From: a bacterium
GTDB lineage: Bacteria; Patescibacteriota; Saccharimonadia; Saccharimonadales; SZUA-47
Length of the DNA stretch: 64,000 bases
Direction: 5' to 3'
NCBI GenBank assembly: GCA_030427125.1
Contig: JAUHXF010000001.1
Coordinates: forward strand, 116,102-180,101
Under the pieces are notes generated by a model. It had not been told where the DNA came from. It saw only the letters and a list, made by a program, of their open reading frames with translations, and did not search any database. The stretch's first letter is position 1. Every line of letters begins with the position of its first letter. Below, one piece after another: positions 37,042-42,445 of the stretch. Position numbers and translations under genes: made by a program.

Positions 37042-37843
37042 CAGGATAGAATCACTGCTTCAAGATATCGAGACTGTACTCATTGGCTTGCGAGATGACG
37101 TGGTTGCTGGAGCAGGTACAACAGACGTTATGTATAAGGCGGATGGTAGTGAGCAGACCGATATGGACGTTCGAGTTGAGCAAACGGTTTTTGATTTTGT
37201 GAAGTCGCGATATCCTGAGGTGACTTTTTACGGTGAGGAGACGGGATATGGTCTGCCGTTACCTGAGCTATGCTGTTTGCTTGATCCGATTGACGGTACA
37301 AAAAGCTACGTTGAGGGTACAGATGGCTACACTGCTATGGCAGTACTTATCTTAAATAATGTAGCAGTGGGTTCGATCATCTACCGGTATACGGACGGAG
37401 CGTCATTTATCGCAATAAAGGGTAGTGGTGCAACGAAAAATGGAGAGAAAATTTCTCTGCAAAACACTGATCTTCCGAGAACTATTTACTGTCGAGAGCG
37501 CATGATTCCTTTTGTGCAGCAGCTACCAGAACTTCATGGTTACACGGTAGAAAAAGGTCCTACCGGTGCGGGTCACGGCTTCGCATTAGTTGCAGAAGGT
37601 GCGATAGCAGCTCGCATAAACGCCACACATTCCGTTGGCGGCGGCGGGTTTATCCATGACTACGCGCCTGGAACCTTGCTTGTGGAAGAGGCTGGAGGTT
37701 CAGTGGTGCCCTTTGAAGACAAGCCGTACGCAGTAGATACCTTCAGTTTTGTCGCATGTCATCCTGCATTATCTAGCACGGTGTCTTCCGTACGTACAGC
37801 GCTAGCTAGTATTGAGGTTGATAGTCTAGGAAAGAAAATCTAG
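37031..37843 (+). CDS. inositol monophosphatase family (IMPase/SuhB/CysQ-like) phosphatase
   Basis: LLDPIDGT metal-binding motif and a downstream GG motif. Start taken at the ATG at 37031, which overlaps the upstream gene end by 11 nt. Confidence 0.7.
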   Translation: MQNNRIESLLQDIETVLIGLRDDVVAGAGTTDVMYKADGSEQTDMDVRVEQTVFDFVKSRYPEVTFYGEETGYGLPLPELCCLLDPIDGTKSYVEGTDGYTAMAVLILNNVAVGSIIYRYTDGASFIAIKGSGATKNGEKISLQNTDLPRTIYCRERMIPFVQQLPELHGYTVEKGPTGAGHGFALVAEGAIAARINATHSVGGGGFIHDYAPGTLLVEEAGGSVVPFEDKPYAVDTFSFVACHPALSSTVSSVRTALASIEVDSLGKKI

Positions 37844-38392
37844 CGCGTCTTTTGTAAGCTCTTTTATATCTCGCGTTCCATCTAGCTGCAATGTGTTTTG
37901 GTGCTCGTGGAATGAAGAGAAATTTTCAACTCGGTCCATAAACGTATGCTTTGAAGGTCCGTGCTCGCCAGCAGCGATTCGTTCTTGAATGCGTTCATAC
38001 GCAATATCGGGTGGCGTATTTAGTTCAATGATGTATACATCAAGTTCTACGCTTTTTTCATGTGCTGCTGTGCGAATAAAGTCAATCAACCTGGTAAATA
38101 CACCTTCATCGGTGAATGGCTGATTCCACATAATTATTGCTCCGTCTTGTGCTGCACGTACAGCCTGGAGTCGTAGCCAGCGAAACGGGTGAATTGCTTT
38201 TGGCAAGTCTTGTGCTGTAAGCTCTTCAGAAAATTTTTTGTAGCCGGGGTTATTCAGATCAAGCGCATCTGGATCCAGCAAGACAATGTTTTCGTTTCCC
38301 AGAGTCTGCAATAATTGATGTGCTAAGTAGGACTTTCCACTTCCTGGAATACCACGTATAAATACTAGCTTTGCATGTTGTGTGTGACTCAT
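37826..38392 (-). CDS. P-loop kinase-like protein (AAA_33/zeta-toxin/CPT-like fold), function unknown
   Basis: Walker A GIPGSGKS at the N-terminus and a following Asp-containing segment. 188 aa. Confidence 0.4.
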   Translation of the reverse strand: MSHTQHAKLVFIRGIPGSGKSYLAHQLLQTLGNENIVLLDPDALDLNNPGYKKFSEELTAQDLPKAIHPFRWLRLQAVRAAQDGAIIMWNQPFTDEGVFTRLIDFIRTAAHEKSVELDVYIIELNTPPDIAYERIQERIAAGEHGPSKHTFMDRVENFSSFHEHQNTLQLDGTRDIKELTKDALDFLS

Positions 38393-38453: not shown

Positions 38454-39479
38454 ATGGAAACAAATACTTTCATTGAAGACGAAGTCGCATTTAGTTTGTT
38501 TCTTGGCGTACTGACTTTTGTGTTCGCGATGTTGTTAACGCCAATTTATACATACGTCGCCTACAAAAAGAAGCTCTGGAAGAAGCCGCGTACTCACTCT
38601 GTGACAGGTGACGAATTAAAAGTCATATCAAAGCTACGTATTAAGCGTAAGATTCCGCGCATGGCCGGAATCGTCACTATAGTCGCTGTTGCATTGACGA
38701 CGCTTTTCTTTAATCTAGATCGCGAACAGACGTGGCTGCCGCTAGCTGCACTAATCGGTGCGGGCTGCATTGGTATGATTGATGACTTAATCAATATCAA
38801 AGGTTTGGGTGGTAAAGTAGCCGGACTATCTGCGCCGTTGAAACTTGCAATGATTAGTACAGTTGGACTTATCGGTGCATGGTGGTTTTACTTCAAGCTT
38901 GATTTTGACTTGTTGCAAATTCCGTTTTACGACAGTATCTCGCTCGGGCTGCTTATTATTCCGGTTTTTGTATTTATCGTGATTGCGACGAGTAATGCAG
39001 TGAACATGACTGATGGGCTCGATGGGCTTGCAGGTGGTTTGTTGATTAATGCTTTTGGAGCATACGGCATTATTACTGCGATGCAAGGAAACTACGGTAT
39101 TGCAGCATTTTGTTTTTCTATCGTCGGTGCTCTCCTGTCGTATACGTGGTTTAATATCGCACCAGCTCGTTTCATAATGGGGGACATAGGTTCGTTTGCG
39201 CTAGGAACTGCTCTTGGTGTTGTTGCTATGCAGTCTAATACTTTATTGCTGCTCCCAGTAATTGGCTTTATTTTTGTATTAGAGGCAGGCTCTGTTCTGT
39301 TGCAGGTTCTATCAAAAAAGATCCTGAAACGAAAAATTTTTCGAGCTTCACCACTTCATCACCATTTAGAGTCTGGCGGGTGGCCCAAGACAAAAGTTAC
39401 TATGCGTTTCTGGATATTAAGCCAGATGTGCGCACTGTTTGGTGTGACGCTGGCGATTACCGGCGGCTTTATCTCATAG
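38454..39479 (+). CDS. mraY: phospho-N-acetylmuramoyl-pentapeptide transferase MraY
   Basis: NAVNMTDGLDGLAGG signature, a cytoplasmic HHH loop and ten predicted TM helices. Confidence 0.9.
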   Translation: METNTFIEDEVAFSLFLGVLTFVFAMLLTPIYTYVAYKKKLWKKPRTHSVTGDELKVISKLRIKRKIPRMAGIVTIVAVALTTLFFNLDREQTWLPLAALIGAGCIGMIDDLINIKGLGGKVAGLSAPLKLAMISTVGLIGAWWFYFKLDFDLLQIPFYDSISLGLLIIPVFVFIVIATSNAVNMTDGLDGLAGGLLINAFGAYGIITAMQGNYGIAAFCFSIVGALLSYTWFNIAPARFIMGDIGSFALGTALGVVAMQSNTLLLLPVIGFIFVLEAGSVLLQVLSKKILKRKIFRASPLHHHLESGGWPKTKVTMRFWILSQMCALFGVTLAITGGFIS

Positions 39480-39480
39480 T

Positions 39481-41004
39481 TTATAAATCGTAGATAACTT
39501 CTATATCGGCACCCAAGTTATTAAGCCGACGAGCAATATCCTCGTAGCCGCGATTGATCGTGTAGACGTTGCGAAGCATTGAAGTTCCAGGTGCAGCTAA
39601 CATGCCGATGAGGAGTAGGCTGGCCGGACGAAGCGCGGGTGGGCAGACGAGGTCTGCTGCACTGAATTTTGTTGGACCAGTTATGTAGACTCTATGCCGG
39701 TCAGCGAGATCGATGTTCGCTCCAATTTTTGAGAGTTCAGTGTAGTAGATTGCTCGATTTTCAAAAGACCAATCATGAATAAGTGTGCGACCTTTTGCGA
39801 TTGCAGCGATAGGTACGAAGTAAGGTAGATTATCCATGTTCAGCCCTGGGTATGGCCGACTGTAGATTTTTCCAGATGGGGCTTTGAGGCTTCCATTGTG
39901 TTTATGGACCGTTACATCAACGAGGTCTGTGAATCCGTTTTCTGCTTTGTAGCGCTTTGACTGCGTGAACGACGCGCCCATTTTTTCAAGCTTTAAGAGC
40001 TCGAGAGCCATAAAGTCAATCGGTACTCGATTAATTGTGATCTCAGAGTTAGTCGTGAGAGCGGTGCTGACAAAGAACATCGCTTCAATTGGGTCTTCAG
40101 CCGGGGCGTACACAATATCCTTTTTTATCTGACCTTTTACGCCAGTTATATGCAATGTTGTCGAGCCTTTGCCCTCAATCTTTACGCCGAGTGCTTCAAG
40201 ATACCCACACACGTCTTGGACCATATAATTTGCACTTGCAAATTGTAAGGTTAGCGATTTGTCGTCATGCGCCGCTGCCATCAACACATTTTCGGTGACT
40301 GTATCACCTGATTCATACATGATTATATGTTCAGGTTTTGCATACGTAGTTTCGACTTTATAGAATCTGTCTTTTGCCTCGATGTTTACACCGAAGTGTT
40401 CTAGGCCGTATAGGTGTGGTTGAACAGAACGTTCTCCCAACTTGCAGCCCCCTGCATATGGAATTTTGAATTCAGGTAGTTCATGCGCGAGAGCGCCAAT
40501 CATCATGAGCACAGAGCGAGTTTTACGCGCAGCCTTGCCATCTAATTGATCCATTTTAAGGGTCGCTGGGCGTTTTAGCTCCAGATCATTATTATCAAGC
40601 CAGCGCACTTTGACGCCAATACTCTCTAAGACTTCAATGATTCGGAATACTTCTTCGATGCGAGGGAATTTCTTAAAGGTTGTCGTACCCTTGTTGAGCA
40701 AGCTTGCACAGAGTAGAGCAACAGCGGCATTTTTACTTGTTTTGAGGGTGATTTCTCCTAACAGCTCTTTGCCACCCTTAATTTTGAGATTTACACCTTG
40801 GTTTCCTACCGATATGAGCGGTTTCTGCAATACGTCGCTAATTCGACTTAGCATATCGAGGCTGAGATTTTGGCCACCTTTTTCTATACGATTGACGGCT
40901 GACTGGGAAGTTTGTAATTTCTTTGCAAATTCTGCCTGTGTGAGTCCTCGTATCTGTCGTATCTCAGAAATGAGAGCACCAAGTCGTTGATTGGGATCAT
41001 TCAT
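39481..41004 (-). CDS. murA: UDP-N-acetylglucosamine 1-carboxyvinyltransferase MurA with fused N-terminal XRE-family HTH domain
   Basis: Residues ~10–65 are an XRE HTH (IRGLTQAEFAKKL…VNRIEKG…LSLDMLSRIS). The remainder is MurA, including the active-site loop KIPYAGGCKLGERSVQPH with the catalytic Cys. 507 aa in a single ORF. Confidence 0.8.
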   Translation of the reverse strand: MNDPNQRLGALISEIRQIRGLTQAEFAKKLQTSQSAVNRIEKGGQNLSLDMLSRISDVLQKPLISVGNQGVNLKIKGGKELLGEITLKTSKNAAVALLCASLLNKGTTTFKKFPRIEEVFRIIEVLESIGVKVRWLDNNDLELKRPATLKMDQLDGKAARKTRSVLMMIGALAHELPEFKIPYAGGCKLGERSVQPHLYGLEHFGVNIEAKDRFYKVETTYAKPEHIIMYESGDTVTENVLMAAAHDDKSLTLQFASANYMVQDVCGYLEALGVKIEGKGSTTLHITGVKGQIKKDIVYAPAEDPIEAMFFVSTALTTNSEITINRVPIDFMALELLKLEKMGASFTQSKRYKAENGFTDLVDVTVHKHNGSLKAPSGKIYSRPYPGLNMDNLPYFVPIAAIAKGRTLIHDWSFENRAIYYTELSKIGANIDLADRHRVYITGPTKFSAADLVCPPALRPASLLLIGMLAAPGTSMLRNVYTINRGYEDIARRLNNLGADIEVIYDL

Positions 41005-41167
41005 GCATAACAGTATAACATTTCAGATGATGCATATACCATACATGATATATTGTGTATTTTACGTGTACTCGAACACTATAACTGGGGTATACTTTTT
41101 TTATGATTTAGCGTATTTCTCCAGCAACAGAAATTGGTAAGAGATAGTAATTATTGGAGGGACAGAT

Positions 41168-42445
41168 ATGAATGATTTTCCGTTCATCGCAGATGAAGAA
41201 ATTCAAGAACTAGCAAAAAAAGAAGCCGAGCGTCAGGCAAATGGCCTAGAGATGATTCCGAGTGAGAACCACACATCGGAAGCTGTGCTCAACGTGCTTG
41301 GTTCACGGCTGACTGATAAGTATTCAGAGGGTTACCCTGGTGCGCGTTATTATGGCGGCTGTGAAATTGTTGATCAAGTCGAAAATATAGCTATAGAGCG
41401 GGCAAAAGAATTGTTTGGTGTAACACACGCGAATGTACAGGCATATTCAGGTTCACCTGCTAATCAAGCAGTGTATTTCGCATTACTAGAACCTGGTGAT
41501 ACTGTGCTAGGAATGCATCTTTTTTACGGTGGTCACATGACGCATGGTTTGAAAGTGAATTTTTCAGGGACGTTATACAATTCAGTTCAATATCATACCG
41601 ATAAGTCGGGATTTATTGATTATGATGAAGTCGCCAAAATGGCAAGGGAACACAAGCCGAAGCTAATTGTAGGTGGCTATACTGCGTATCCACGAAAAGT
41701 AGACTGGAAAAAGCTTCGAGAAATTGCTGATTCTGTTGATGCTTTTCTACTCGCGGATATTTCTCATATTAGTGCGTTAGTTGTGAGTGGTGATCACCCA
41801 TCTCCGGTCGGCATTGCAGACGTGGTGATGACAACGACTCACAAGGGTATGCGGGGCCCGCGAGGGGCACTCATTTTGTGTAACGGAAATCCTTCGACGC
41901 CACTTAAAAAGTTAGAGAAAACTAAGGAAAACATACCGTCTTTGATTGATCGAGCAATTATTCCTGGACTTCAAGGAGGGCCGCACAATCACCAAACGGC
42001 CGGAATTGCTGTTGCACTCAAGCAAGCACTGCAGCCGGAGTTTAAAGAGTACGGTCATCAAGTAGCTAAAAATGCAAAGGTTCTCGCTGATGAACTAATG
42101 AAGCGTGGCTTTGAATTAGTAACTGGCGGTACTGACACGCATCTCATGGTAATCGACATGAACAATAAAGGTTTGAGCGGCAAAGAAGCAGAAAAAGCCC
42201 TCGGTAAGGCTGGCATTACCGTGAATAAGAATACGGTGCCATTTGATCCTAGAAGTCCGTTTGATCCAAGTGGCATACGACTTGGAACGCCGGCGTTGAC
42301 AACACGAGGCATGAAAGAAAAAGAAATGGTACAGGTAGCTGCGTGGATTGATGAAGCTGTTCAGCATGCTGATGATGATGCGCATCTCAAAAACATGCAT
42401 AAGGAAATTACGAAATTCACAAAAGATTTCCCGTTGCCTAGCTAG
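41168..42445 (+). CDS. glyA: serine hydroxymethyltransferase
   Basis: PLP-Lys motif TTTHKGMRGPRGALI. Confidence 0.95.
   Translation: MNDFPFIADEEIQELAKKEAERQANGLEMIPSENHTSEAVLNVLGSRLTDKYSEGYPGARYYGGCEIVDQVENIAIERAKELFGVTHANVQAYSGSPANQAVYFALLEPGDTVLGMHLFYGGHMTHGLKVNFSGTLYNSVQYHTDKSGFIDYDEVAKMAREHKPKLIVGGYTAYPRKVDWKKLREIADSVDAFLLADISHISALVVSGDHPSPVGIADVVMTTTHKGMRGPRGALILCNGNPSTPLKKLEKTKENIPSLIDRAIIPGLQGGPHNHQTAGIAVALKQALQPEFKEYGHQVAKNAKVLADELMKRGFELVTGGTDTHLMVIDMNNKGLSGKEAEKALGKAGITVNKNTVPFDPRSPFDPSGIRLGTPALTTRGMKEKEMVQVAAWIDEAVQHADDDAHLKNMHKEITKFTKDFPLPS

Follow-up and report, generated by a model that had tools for sequence, protein, structure and literature searches.

The 64,000-nucleotide stretch of DNA analyzed here (the window) comes from a bacterium of the order Saccharimonadales (Patescibacteriota; GTDB group SZUA-47) and covers positions 116,102 to 180,101 of contig JAUHXF010000001.1 in assembly GCA_030427125.1, a genome of 0.92 Mb in 40 contigs that is 90% complete. 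On its minus strand, positions 39481..41004 hold a single open reading frame (ORF) of 507 codons plus stop with two Pfam domains, an N-terminal helix-turn-helix (HTH) domain of the XRE/Cro-C1 type and a catalytic body of the peptidoglycan enzyme MurA, and a palindrome that we regard as a putative operator lies upstream of this gene, whose product we call HTH-MurA. The frame is unbroken in both the ORF listing and its translation. An original prediction, made from the letters of the sequence, had described one 507-aa protein with an XRE HTH and a complete MurA including its catalytic Cys loop, and this description is confirmed by the ORF, by Pfam, by the NCBIfam model NF006873 and by alignment to solved structures.

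The Pfam HTH_3 match spans residues 12-63 (40816..40971, minus strand; E 5e-14, 52.5 bits against a cut-off of 23), and in an AlphaFold2 model built with 47 relatives (mean predicted local distance difference test score [pLDDT] of 90 for the whole model) the N-terminal part folds into four helices at residues 4-18, 23-30, 34-41, and 49-59. The solved structures closest to residues 1-72 are those of the XRE DNA-binding proteins PlcR, CylR2, HipB, and C.BclI. The recognition helix and the turn that follows it form residues 32-41 (TSQSAVNRIE; 40882..40911, minus strand), where Q34, R39, and E41 are invariant and T32, S33, S35, and A36 are conserved at 90% or more in 47 fused proteins whose overall identity is as low as 47%; the same motif is also found in copies from Actinomycetota. 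Between the head and the body lies a flexible linker of about 10 residues (residues 60-69; 40798..40827, minus strand), with a pLDDT of 57 that drops below 50 at residues 65-68, flanked on both sides by confidently modeled domains.

The MurA body occupies residues 73-504 (39493..40788, minus strand), over which NF006873 (MurA) scores 306.3 bits and exceeds its cut-off of 297, while EPSP_synthase (PF00275) matches residues 76-493 across model positions 2-416 of 417 (E 4.8e-40); NF009470, with 206 bits, stays under its cut-off of 552. It aligns end to end with canonical MurAs (EC 2.5.1.7) of known structure from E. coli and E. cloacae (1UAE, 1NAW, 5UJS) at about 27-35% identity, covering the full two-domain EPSP-synthase/MurA fold and keeping the principal catalytic residues. 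The catalytic Cys loop, which includes the equivalent of Cys115 in E. coli, lies at residues 184-197 (40414..40455, minus strand), and the loop quoted in the original prediction, GGCKLGERSVQPH, corresponds to residues 185-197. The E. coli residues K22, N23, R91, C115, and R120 are represented by K91, N92, R163, C187, and R192, and D305, R331, R371, and R397 by D391, R417, R459, and R485; all nine are invariant in 47 family members, and C187, R192, and H197 are invariant across the family alignment. On these matches the 507-aa protein is a divergent MurA, and its differences from canonical MurA are an added N-terminal XRE domain of about 72 residues with linker, a position in a separate subclade, an insert of its own, the motif CPPALRPA in the region of E. 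coli D369, and a predicted dimer of the body. Both domains are intact and under selection: among proteins that otherwise share 47-85% identity, no catalytic residue varies, and the recognition helix is either invariant or conserved at 90% or more. We infer that the body is an active MurA and the only one in the cell, as the genome holds no second EPSP-fold gene, a MraY-family gene adjoins it, and an ORF resembling MurB (judged by eye) lies about 2 kb away.

The junction between the two domains, near nt 40800 (residues 60-72), is in frame in every full-length relative, which excludes a frameshift or chimera in the window assembly, and no in-frame ATG, GTG, or TTG able to start a separate MurA was found around it. 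The same in-frame fusion occurs in more than 100 protein clusters at 69-85% identity, the close homologues being labelled Candidatus Saccharibacteria or Saccharimonadales. A survey of related genomes for the fusion, which the original prediction had called for together with the frameshift check, found that it is the rule in the order searched: 34 of 41 genomes carry it as a single intact frame (including the unpublished genome G021, on which alone no claim rests), and four more hold fragments, truncated at contig ends or, in the case of G020, interrupted by stop codons within the N-terminal region. The last three (G003, G009, and G039; 98%, 92%, and 81% complete) yielded no query match, no EPSP-family gene, and no copy of the HTH, and it is possible that MurA was lost in some lineages. 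An even sample of 301 Patescibacteria contained 30 genomes with the fusion, 19 with a close unfused relative (45-57% identity), and an ordinary MurA (about 30-37% identity) in the remainder; 12 of 301 sampled Actinomycetota carry the fusion as well, and a scan of one genome per species recovered at least 560 fused loci. The architecture is nonstandard for a MurA, as first claimed, and at this frequency it is not rare.

An assembly or gene-calling artifact, in which a sequencing error joined a small HTH gene to murA, could draw on the stops in the N-terminal part in G020 and on two genomes, G035 and G222, in which the contig ends at the junction; it is hardly credible given that the same in-frame junction recurs across hundreds of independent assemblies, among them complete chromosomes and genomes of cultured Actinomycetota. 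What looked like stand-alone HTH genes in those two genomes (G035:C1:77229-77445 and G222:C12:1-237) are contig ends and not real small genes, as both contigs stop within a few codons of the HTH/MurA junction, and the MurA body was not found elsewhere in either assembly; the breaks may be a coincidence or a recurrent assembly break, for example through strain variation downstream of the conserved head. A search out to about 1.4 kb from each of the 19 unfused genes of the subclade found no separate HTH ORF, so these genes either lost the head or predate the fusion and did not arise by fission.

Aligning the upstream regions at the start codon exposed a consensus palindrome, TATATCA-N4-TGATATA, which we scored over its 14 arm positions in the 200 nt upstream of murA with the spacer left unscored. 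The window carries TATATCA-tgta-TGGTATA at 41035..41052 (minus strand), an 18-bp palindrome that matches 13 of 14 arm positions and ends 30 nt before the ATG, so that the search for a palindrome in 41005-41160 suggested by the original prediction yielded a candidate that is the genome's only site of that quality and that co-occurs with the HTH. No other site with a score of at least 13/14 exists in the 924 kb and none arose in five Markov-3 shuffles; matches at 12/14 numbered 6, against 6-13 in the shuffles. A score of at least 12/14 was reached upstream of 32 of 41 fused genes, in every case with a 4-nt spacer, whereas among 25 unfused or ordinary murA genes two reached 12 and none reached 13. 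In 23 of these 32 sites the distance from the right end to the start codon is 6-15 nt. The spacer is conserved even though it was unscored (T in 24/31, A in 20/31, and T in 25/31, followed by A or G), and as a consequence of this T-A-T-R pattern the 18-mer is palindromic throughout. The site has been lost in two fused genes, L047 and L051, in which the recognition helix is degenerate.

In most relatives an extended -10 box is formed by TATAAT, which continues from the right arm, and by a TG two bases upstream of it, and we infer from this placement a very short leader or none, that is, leaderless transcription. The embedded -10 has decayed to TATATG in the window, where an extended -10-like element, TGTTATACT, was recognized by eye 7 nt before the ATG (41012..41020, minus strand); should it serve as the -10, the window palindrome would cover its -35 region. 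All 18 actinobacterial loci inspected possess a palindrome at the same position, mostly ATCTCA-N4-TGAGAT, whose right end is followed by a -10 motif of the type TAnnnT. Compared to the Patescibacteria consensus, the same base has changed in both arms in most of the 18 copies, as would be expected if a symmetric dimer recognizes the site. In two actinobacterial genomes of 7.1 and 9.2 Mb the exact sequence ATCTCA-N4-TGAGAT occurs once per genome, both times at the promoter of the fused murA.

Folding two copies of residues 5-504 with our own alignment and three controls predicted a homodimer, with an interaction prediction score from aligned errors (ipSAE) of 0.62 against 0.00 for the best of the three controls; the mark was reached by 20 of 30 proteins in whose solved structures one chain pairs with itself and by 1 of 23 single-chain structures, counts that hold roughly given our use of our own alignment. 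Different runs share at least 90% of their contacts, and the pLDDT of the partners is at least 86. The predicted interface has two-fold symmetry and is confined to the MurA body (residues 192-199, 228-232, 254-255, 281-283, 330-341, 377-387, 410-412, and 435-437), and it includes the invariant residues W412 and H437. W412 is also present in an unfused member of the subclade, suggesting that a dimeric body may predate the fusion, and is absent from E. coli MurA and from the one ordinary MurA of the candidate phyla radiation that was aligned. The interface touches R192 and neighbors of the catalytic loop, a contact in the model that is the sole hint that ligand state might affect dimerization. 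The centers of the half-sites are 10 bp apart, about one helical turn, a spacing that suits a dimer on one face of the DNA.

We propose, with a probability of roughly 70%, that HTH-MurA is a bifunctional enzyme and autorepressor that represses its own gene. The N-terminal XRE domain, on its short flexible tether, would bind the 18-bp palindrome in its own promoter, two subunits joined via their MurA bodies would set the two HTH heads on half-sites 10 bp apart, and, because core promoter elements fall under the site (in most relatives the -10 box; here the region just upstream of the -10-like box), the bound protein would block RNA polymerase. Excess MurA would then sit on its own promoter, and the concentration of MurA would set a ceiling on its further production. 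The domain architecture, its conservation, the uniqueness of the site, and the joint occurrence of site and HTH are observed in the sequences; that the protein binds DNA, forms a dimer, acts as a repressor and not as an activator, and responds to substrate, and that its mRNA is leaderless, are predictions from sequences and models.

Several observations weigh against this proposal. Nine of the 41 fused genes score below 12, and in the genus of the window the site has either shifted to 30-43 nt from the ATG or degenerated, with a more degenerate left arm in the two other genomes of the genus (10/14 in L003 and 11/14 in L004). The fused genes that were scored had also supplied the palindrome model, and, being related, their genomes are not independent; part of the conservation of the right arm is that of a promoter, as this arm also serves as a -10 box. 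A scan of 40950-41220 for consensus two-hexamer promoters and terminators found nothing. The dimer model is silent on the position of the HTH head and on binding in the cell, and its passing score may be partly a memory of MurA crystal packing. On the enzymatic side, the equivalog model TIGR01072 gives 288.4 bits, under its cut-off of 392.7, and E. coli D369 (of D369-L370) is replaced by Pro-Ala in the motif CPPALRPA throughout the subclade, with the Leu and Arg retained; given both, the kinetics or even the substrate of HTH-MurA could be different.

Other readings of the locus differ in what they ask of the HTH and of the body. If the HTH binds the palindrome, the outcome need not be simple autorepression and could instead be activation or control of glyA, which encodes serine hydroxymethyltransferase (41168-42445), is divergent from murA across a shared 163-bp intergenic region, and is the divergent neighbor in 10 of 11 other loci examined of the window gene's family. 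That the window site lies upstream of, not on, the best -10-like box would agree with such a role; yet in most lineages the site overlaps the murA -10 and lies 6-15 nt ahead of the murA start codon, an arrangement typical of repressors, the glyA neighborhood is seen only in the window gene's family while the site follows murA into Actinomycetota, where the neighbor is aconitase, and the window site is 116 nt from the glyA start. We consider activation or control of glyA unlikely. It is rather improbable, too, that the palindrome is simply a promoter element under conservation, or is bound by a different regulator, and that the HTH serves protein-protein contact, nucleoid localization, or nonspecific DNA binding. 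The identity of the right arm with an extended -10 box fits this idea, as does a dimer model that does not involve the HTH, but a promoter element would leave unexplained a left arm and spacer conserved where promoters normally impose no constraint, the lack of the site in front of unfused sister genes and in front of those whose HTH has decayed, the joint change of both arms in Actinomycetota, and its uniqueness in the genomes searched.

The body, in turn, could have become the ligand-sensing domain of a transcription factor that is no longer an enzyme of wall synthesis. The score below the TIGR01072 equivalog cut-off, the subclade-specific insert, Pro-Ala in place of E. coli D369, and the presence of a second copy beside a canonical MurA in Actinomycetota would all be compatible with such a conversion, which we nevertheless regard as very improbable for the window gene: it is the sole EPSP-fold gene of its genome, it keeps its MraY-family and by-eye MurB neighbors, and the equivalents of K22, N23, R91, C115, R120, D305, R331, R371, and R397 are invariant.

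A self-repressing murA gene is the reading we prefer, and its history can be traced in part. A maximum-likelihood tree of MurA bodies (66 rows, quick search) recovered the subclade with 100% support by the Shimodaira-Hasegawa-like approximate likelihood ratio test (SH-aLRT), with unfused genes as its earliest branches, and placed all 41 fused and 11 unfused genes in one clade (98%), in which every member of a 27-row clade, holding all 25 sequences from the window's order, is fused. At minimum eight changes of state are needed, at least six of them forced by well-supported branches, and on these sequences one gain of the HTH with repeated losses fits. In one family and its neighbors (f33; loci L020-L029 and L041-L054), fused, unfused, and decayed-HTH versions alternate within single Patescibacteria families, and families of this type are a natural series for studying the loss of a regulatory head.

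Among Actinomycetota the fusion was found in the cultured Actinopolymorpha rutila DSM 18448 and Brachybacterium vulturis by the species-level scan, and in Streptomyces sp. BHT-5-2 and Nonomuraea gerenzanensis by a protein search (plasmid and chromid records). These actinobacterial copies have a G+C content of 68-70%, similar to that of their own genomes, and the window protein shares 53% identity over its full length, HTH included, with one of them (L161). A canonical MurA is present alongside the fused copy in Actinopolymorpha, Brachybacterium, and three more genomes; in two smaller genomes, an Aeromicrobium metagenome-assembled genome and G467, the fused copy was the only one found. In the 7.1- and 9.2-Mb genomes, which are probably Streptomyces, the fusion is one of exactly two MurA-like genes and adjoins a divergent aconitase gene; at L161 this synteny was shown by an aconitase search, the flanking ORFs first picked having given no Pfam match, probably because the frames were misread in GC-rich sequence. 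In a second tree (69 rows) we obtained the eight Actinomycetota sequences in one clade (99%) nested among Saccharimonadales, next to a group with Nanosynbacter, and an approximately unbiased (AU) test disfavored an all-Patescibacteria grouping at p = 0.022, a value that is optimistic as the group was named after the tree was seen. Several actinobacterial rows are also deviant in amino acid composition, and, provisionally in view of both caveats, transfer from Patescibacteria to Actinomycetota is the better-supported direction in the sequences. The fusion is a concrete candidate for gene flow between Saccharibacteria and Actinomycetota, the phylum of their known hosts.

In Streptomyces coelicolor, SCO5998 (MurA2) adjoins SCO5999 (PMC12161575), and murA2 is SigB-dependent (PMC8346170); in S. 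venezuelae, murA2 is a BldM-WhiI target (PMC4125116, PMC11005364). The actinobacterial fusions are likewise the second MurA-like gene beside aconitase, as SCO5998 is beside SCO5999, and from this synteny and copy number, rather than from the sequence of SCO5998, the actinobacterial fusion is probably Streptomyces MurA2 (SCO5998/vnz_28735). The window protein resembles it over the full length including the HTH, with a palindrome at the same position, and differs in being the single MurA of its genome, whereas the actinobacterial gene is an extra, developmentally regulated copy. The published accounts of murA2 (PMC4125116, PMC11005364, PMC8346170, PMC12161575) mention neither the HTH nor the palindrome, and the fusion design gives a testable function to this unexplained second MurA of Streptomyces.

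A more far-reaching version of the proposal, which we offer tentatively and consider doubtful as a whole, would make HTH-MurA a trigger enzyme. The open or closed state of MurA (free, or loaded with UDP-N-acetylglucosamine [UDP-GlcNAc], phosphoenolpyruvate, or UDP-N-acetylmuramic acid) would set dimerization and operator occupancy, so that the supply of wall precursors tunes murA transcription, and the fusion, born in Patescibacteria, would have passed from a Saccharibacteria-like epibiont to actinobacterial hosts and become the developmental MurA2 of Streptomyces. By analogy, the closest known logic is that of BirA, PutA, and NadR, with canonical MurA and, probably, Streptomyces MurA2 as the closest relatives. 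These trigger enzymes, too, combine a metabolic enzyme and a DNA-binding domain in one chain that acts on the promoter of its own pathway, the operator being putative in our case, and in BirA dimerization through the enzyme body controls operator binding. Their folds and pathways are unrelated to those of HTH-MurA, for which ligand-controlled binding is only hypothetical. The head itself is of the kind found in HipB, CylR2, the C.BclI controller proteins, and the HTH of PlcR, and the window site, palindromic with half-sites about one helical turn apart, is in keeping with such XRE heads; regulators of the HipB type dimerize via the HTH or their own C-terminal extensions, whereas in HTH-MurA the predicted contact is in the fused enzyme. 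An XRE HTH-shikimate kinase (NF006015/PRK08154) also carries an XRE head on an enzyme and matches the HTH part weakly (E 1.3e-5), but the enzyme is a different one and the analogy is architectural only.

A literature search, with subscription journals mostly outside its reach and a review of Streptomyces developmental genes included, returned no description of an HTH-MurA fusion or operator and no MurA placed among trigger enzymes. MurA catalyzes the committed step of peptidoglycan synthesis and is the target of fosfomycin. Its control is an active field of research, with CwlM-dependent activation in mycobacteria (PMC4946905) and control by PrkA-ReoM in Firmicutes (bioRxiv 10.1101/2019.12.16.877605) as examples, and a self-repressing MurA, if true, would be a third solution, purely transcriptional and self-contained. 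Such a self-contained repressor head would suit ultra-small genomes with few regulators.

Beyond its own promoter, the window genome gave no sign of a regulon, the other near matches being coding or indistinguishable from chance. The original prediction had offered autoregulation or moonlighting as a transcription factor; the unique palindrome co-occurring with the HTH supports autoregulation, with binding and repression read from sequence, and no evidence was found for a wider moonlighting regulon. In the genomes of three relatives, including G168 and G252, the extra palindromes with one mismatch or fewer lie inside coding sequence, and in G010 and G102 there are single matches, neither near murA nor near glmS; a reversed-pattern control likewise gave 0-1 per genome. 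A glmS operator was considered and rejected, as the regions upstream of glmS in three relatives score at most 9/14; no glmS was found in the 90% complete window genome. One 12/14 site, TATATCA-gttg-CGGTATA at G000:C20:16626-16643, shares the GGTATA right arm of the murA site and directly precedes the start of what is probably an aminoacyl-tRNA synthetase gene, as guessed from the N-terminus of its product; the match does not stand out from chance.

Two conserved blocks, about gcTAAATCAT and ATTGTACyCCA on the murA strand, lie between murA and glyA at 41053-41167 of the window and in the homologous regions of L005-L013. On the glyA strand the first block looks like an extended -10 box (TGATTTAG or TGATATAG), and the two blocks are probably the glyA promoter. 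On the other side, the MraY-family gene, a family-4 glycosyltransferase (38454-39479), is convergent with murA, and a DUF218 gene is also among the neighbors. The MraY-family gene separates murA from a gene at 37826-38392 (minus strand) for a 188-aa P-loop protein with Pfam matches to AAA_33 and Zeta_toxin, and ORFs of four relatives that by eye resemble it and share its N-terminal motif GxPGSGKS lie within about 1.5 kb of HTH-murA at L003:3009-3587, L004:937-1494, L008:57-683, and L011:3847-4434. Since zeta toxins phosphorylate UDP-GlcNAc, the substrate of MurA, the P-loop gene may be functionally linked with murA.

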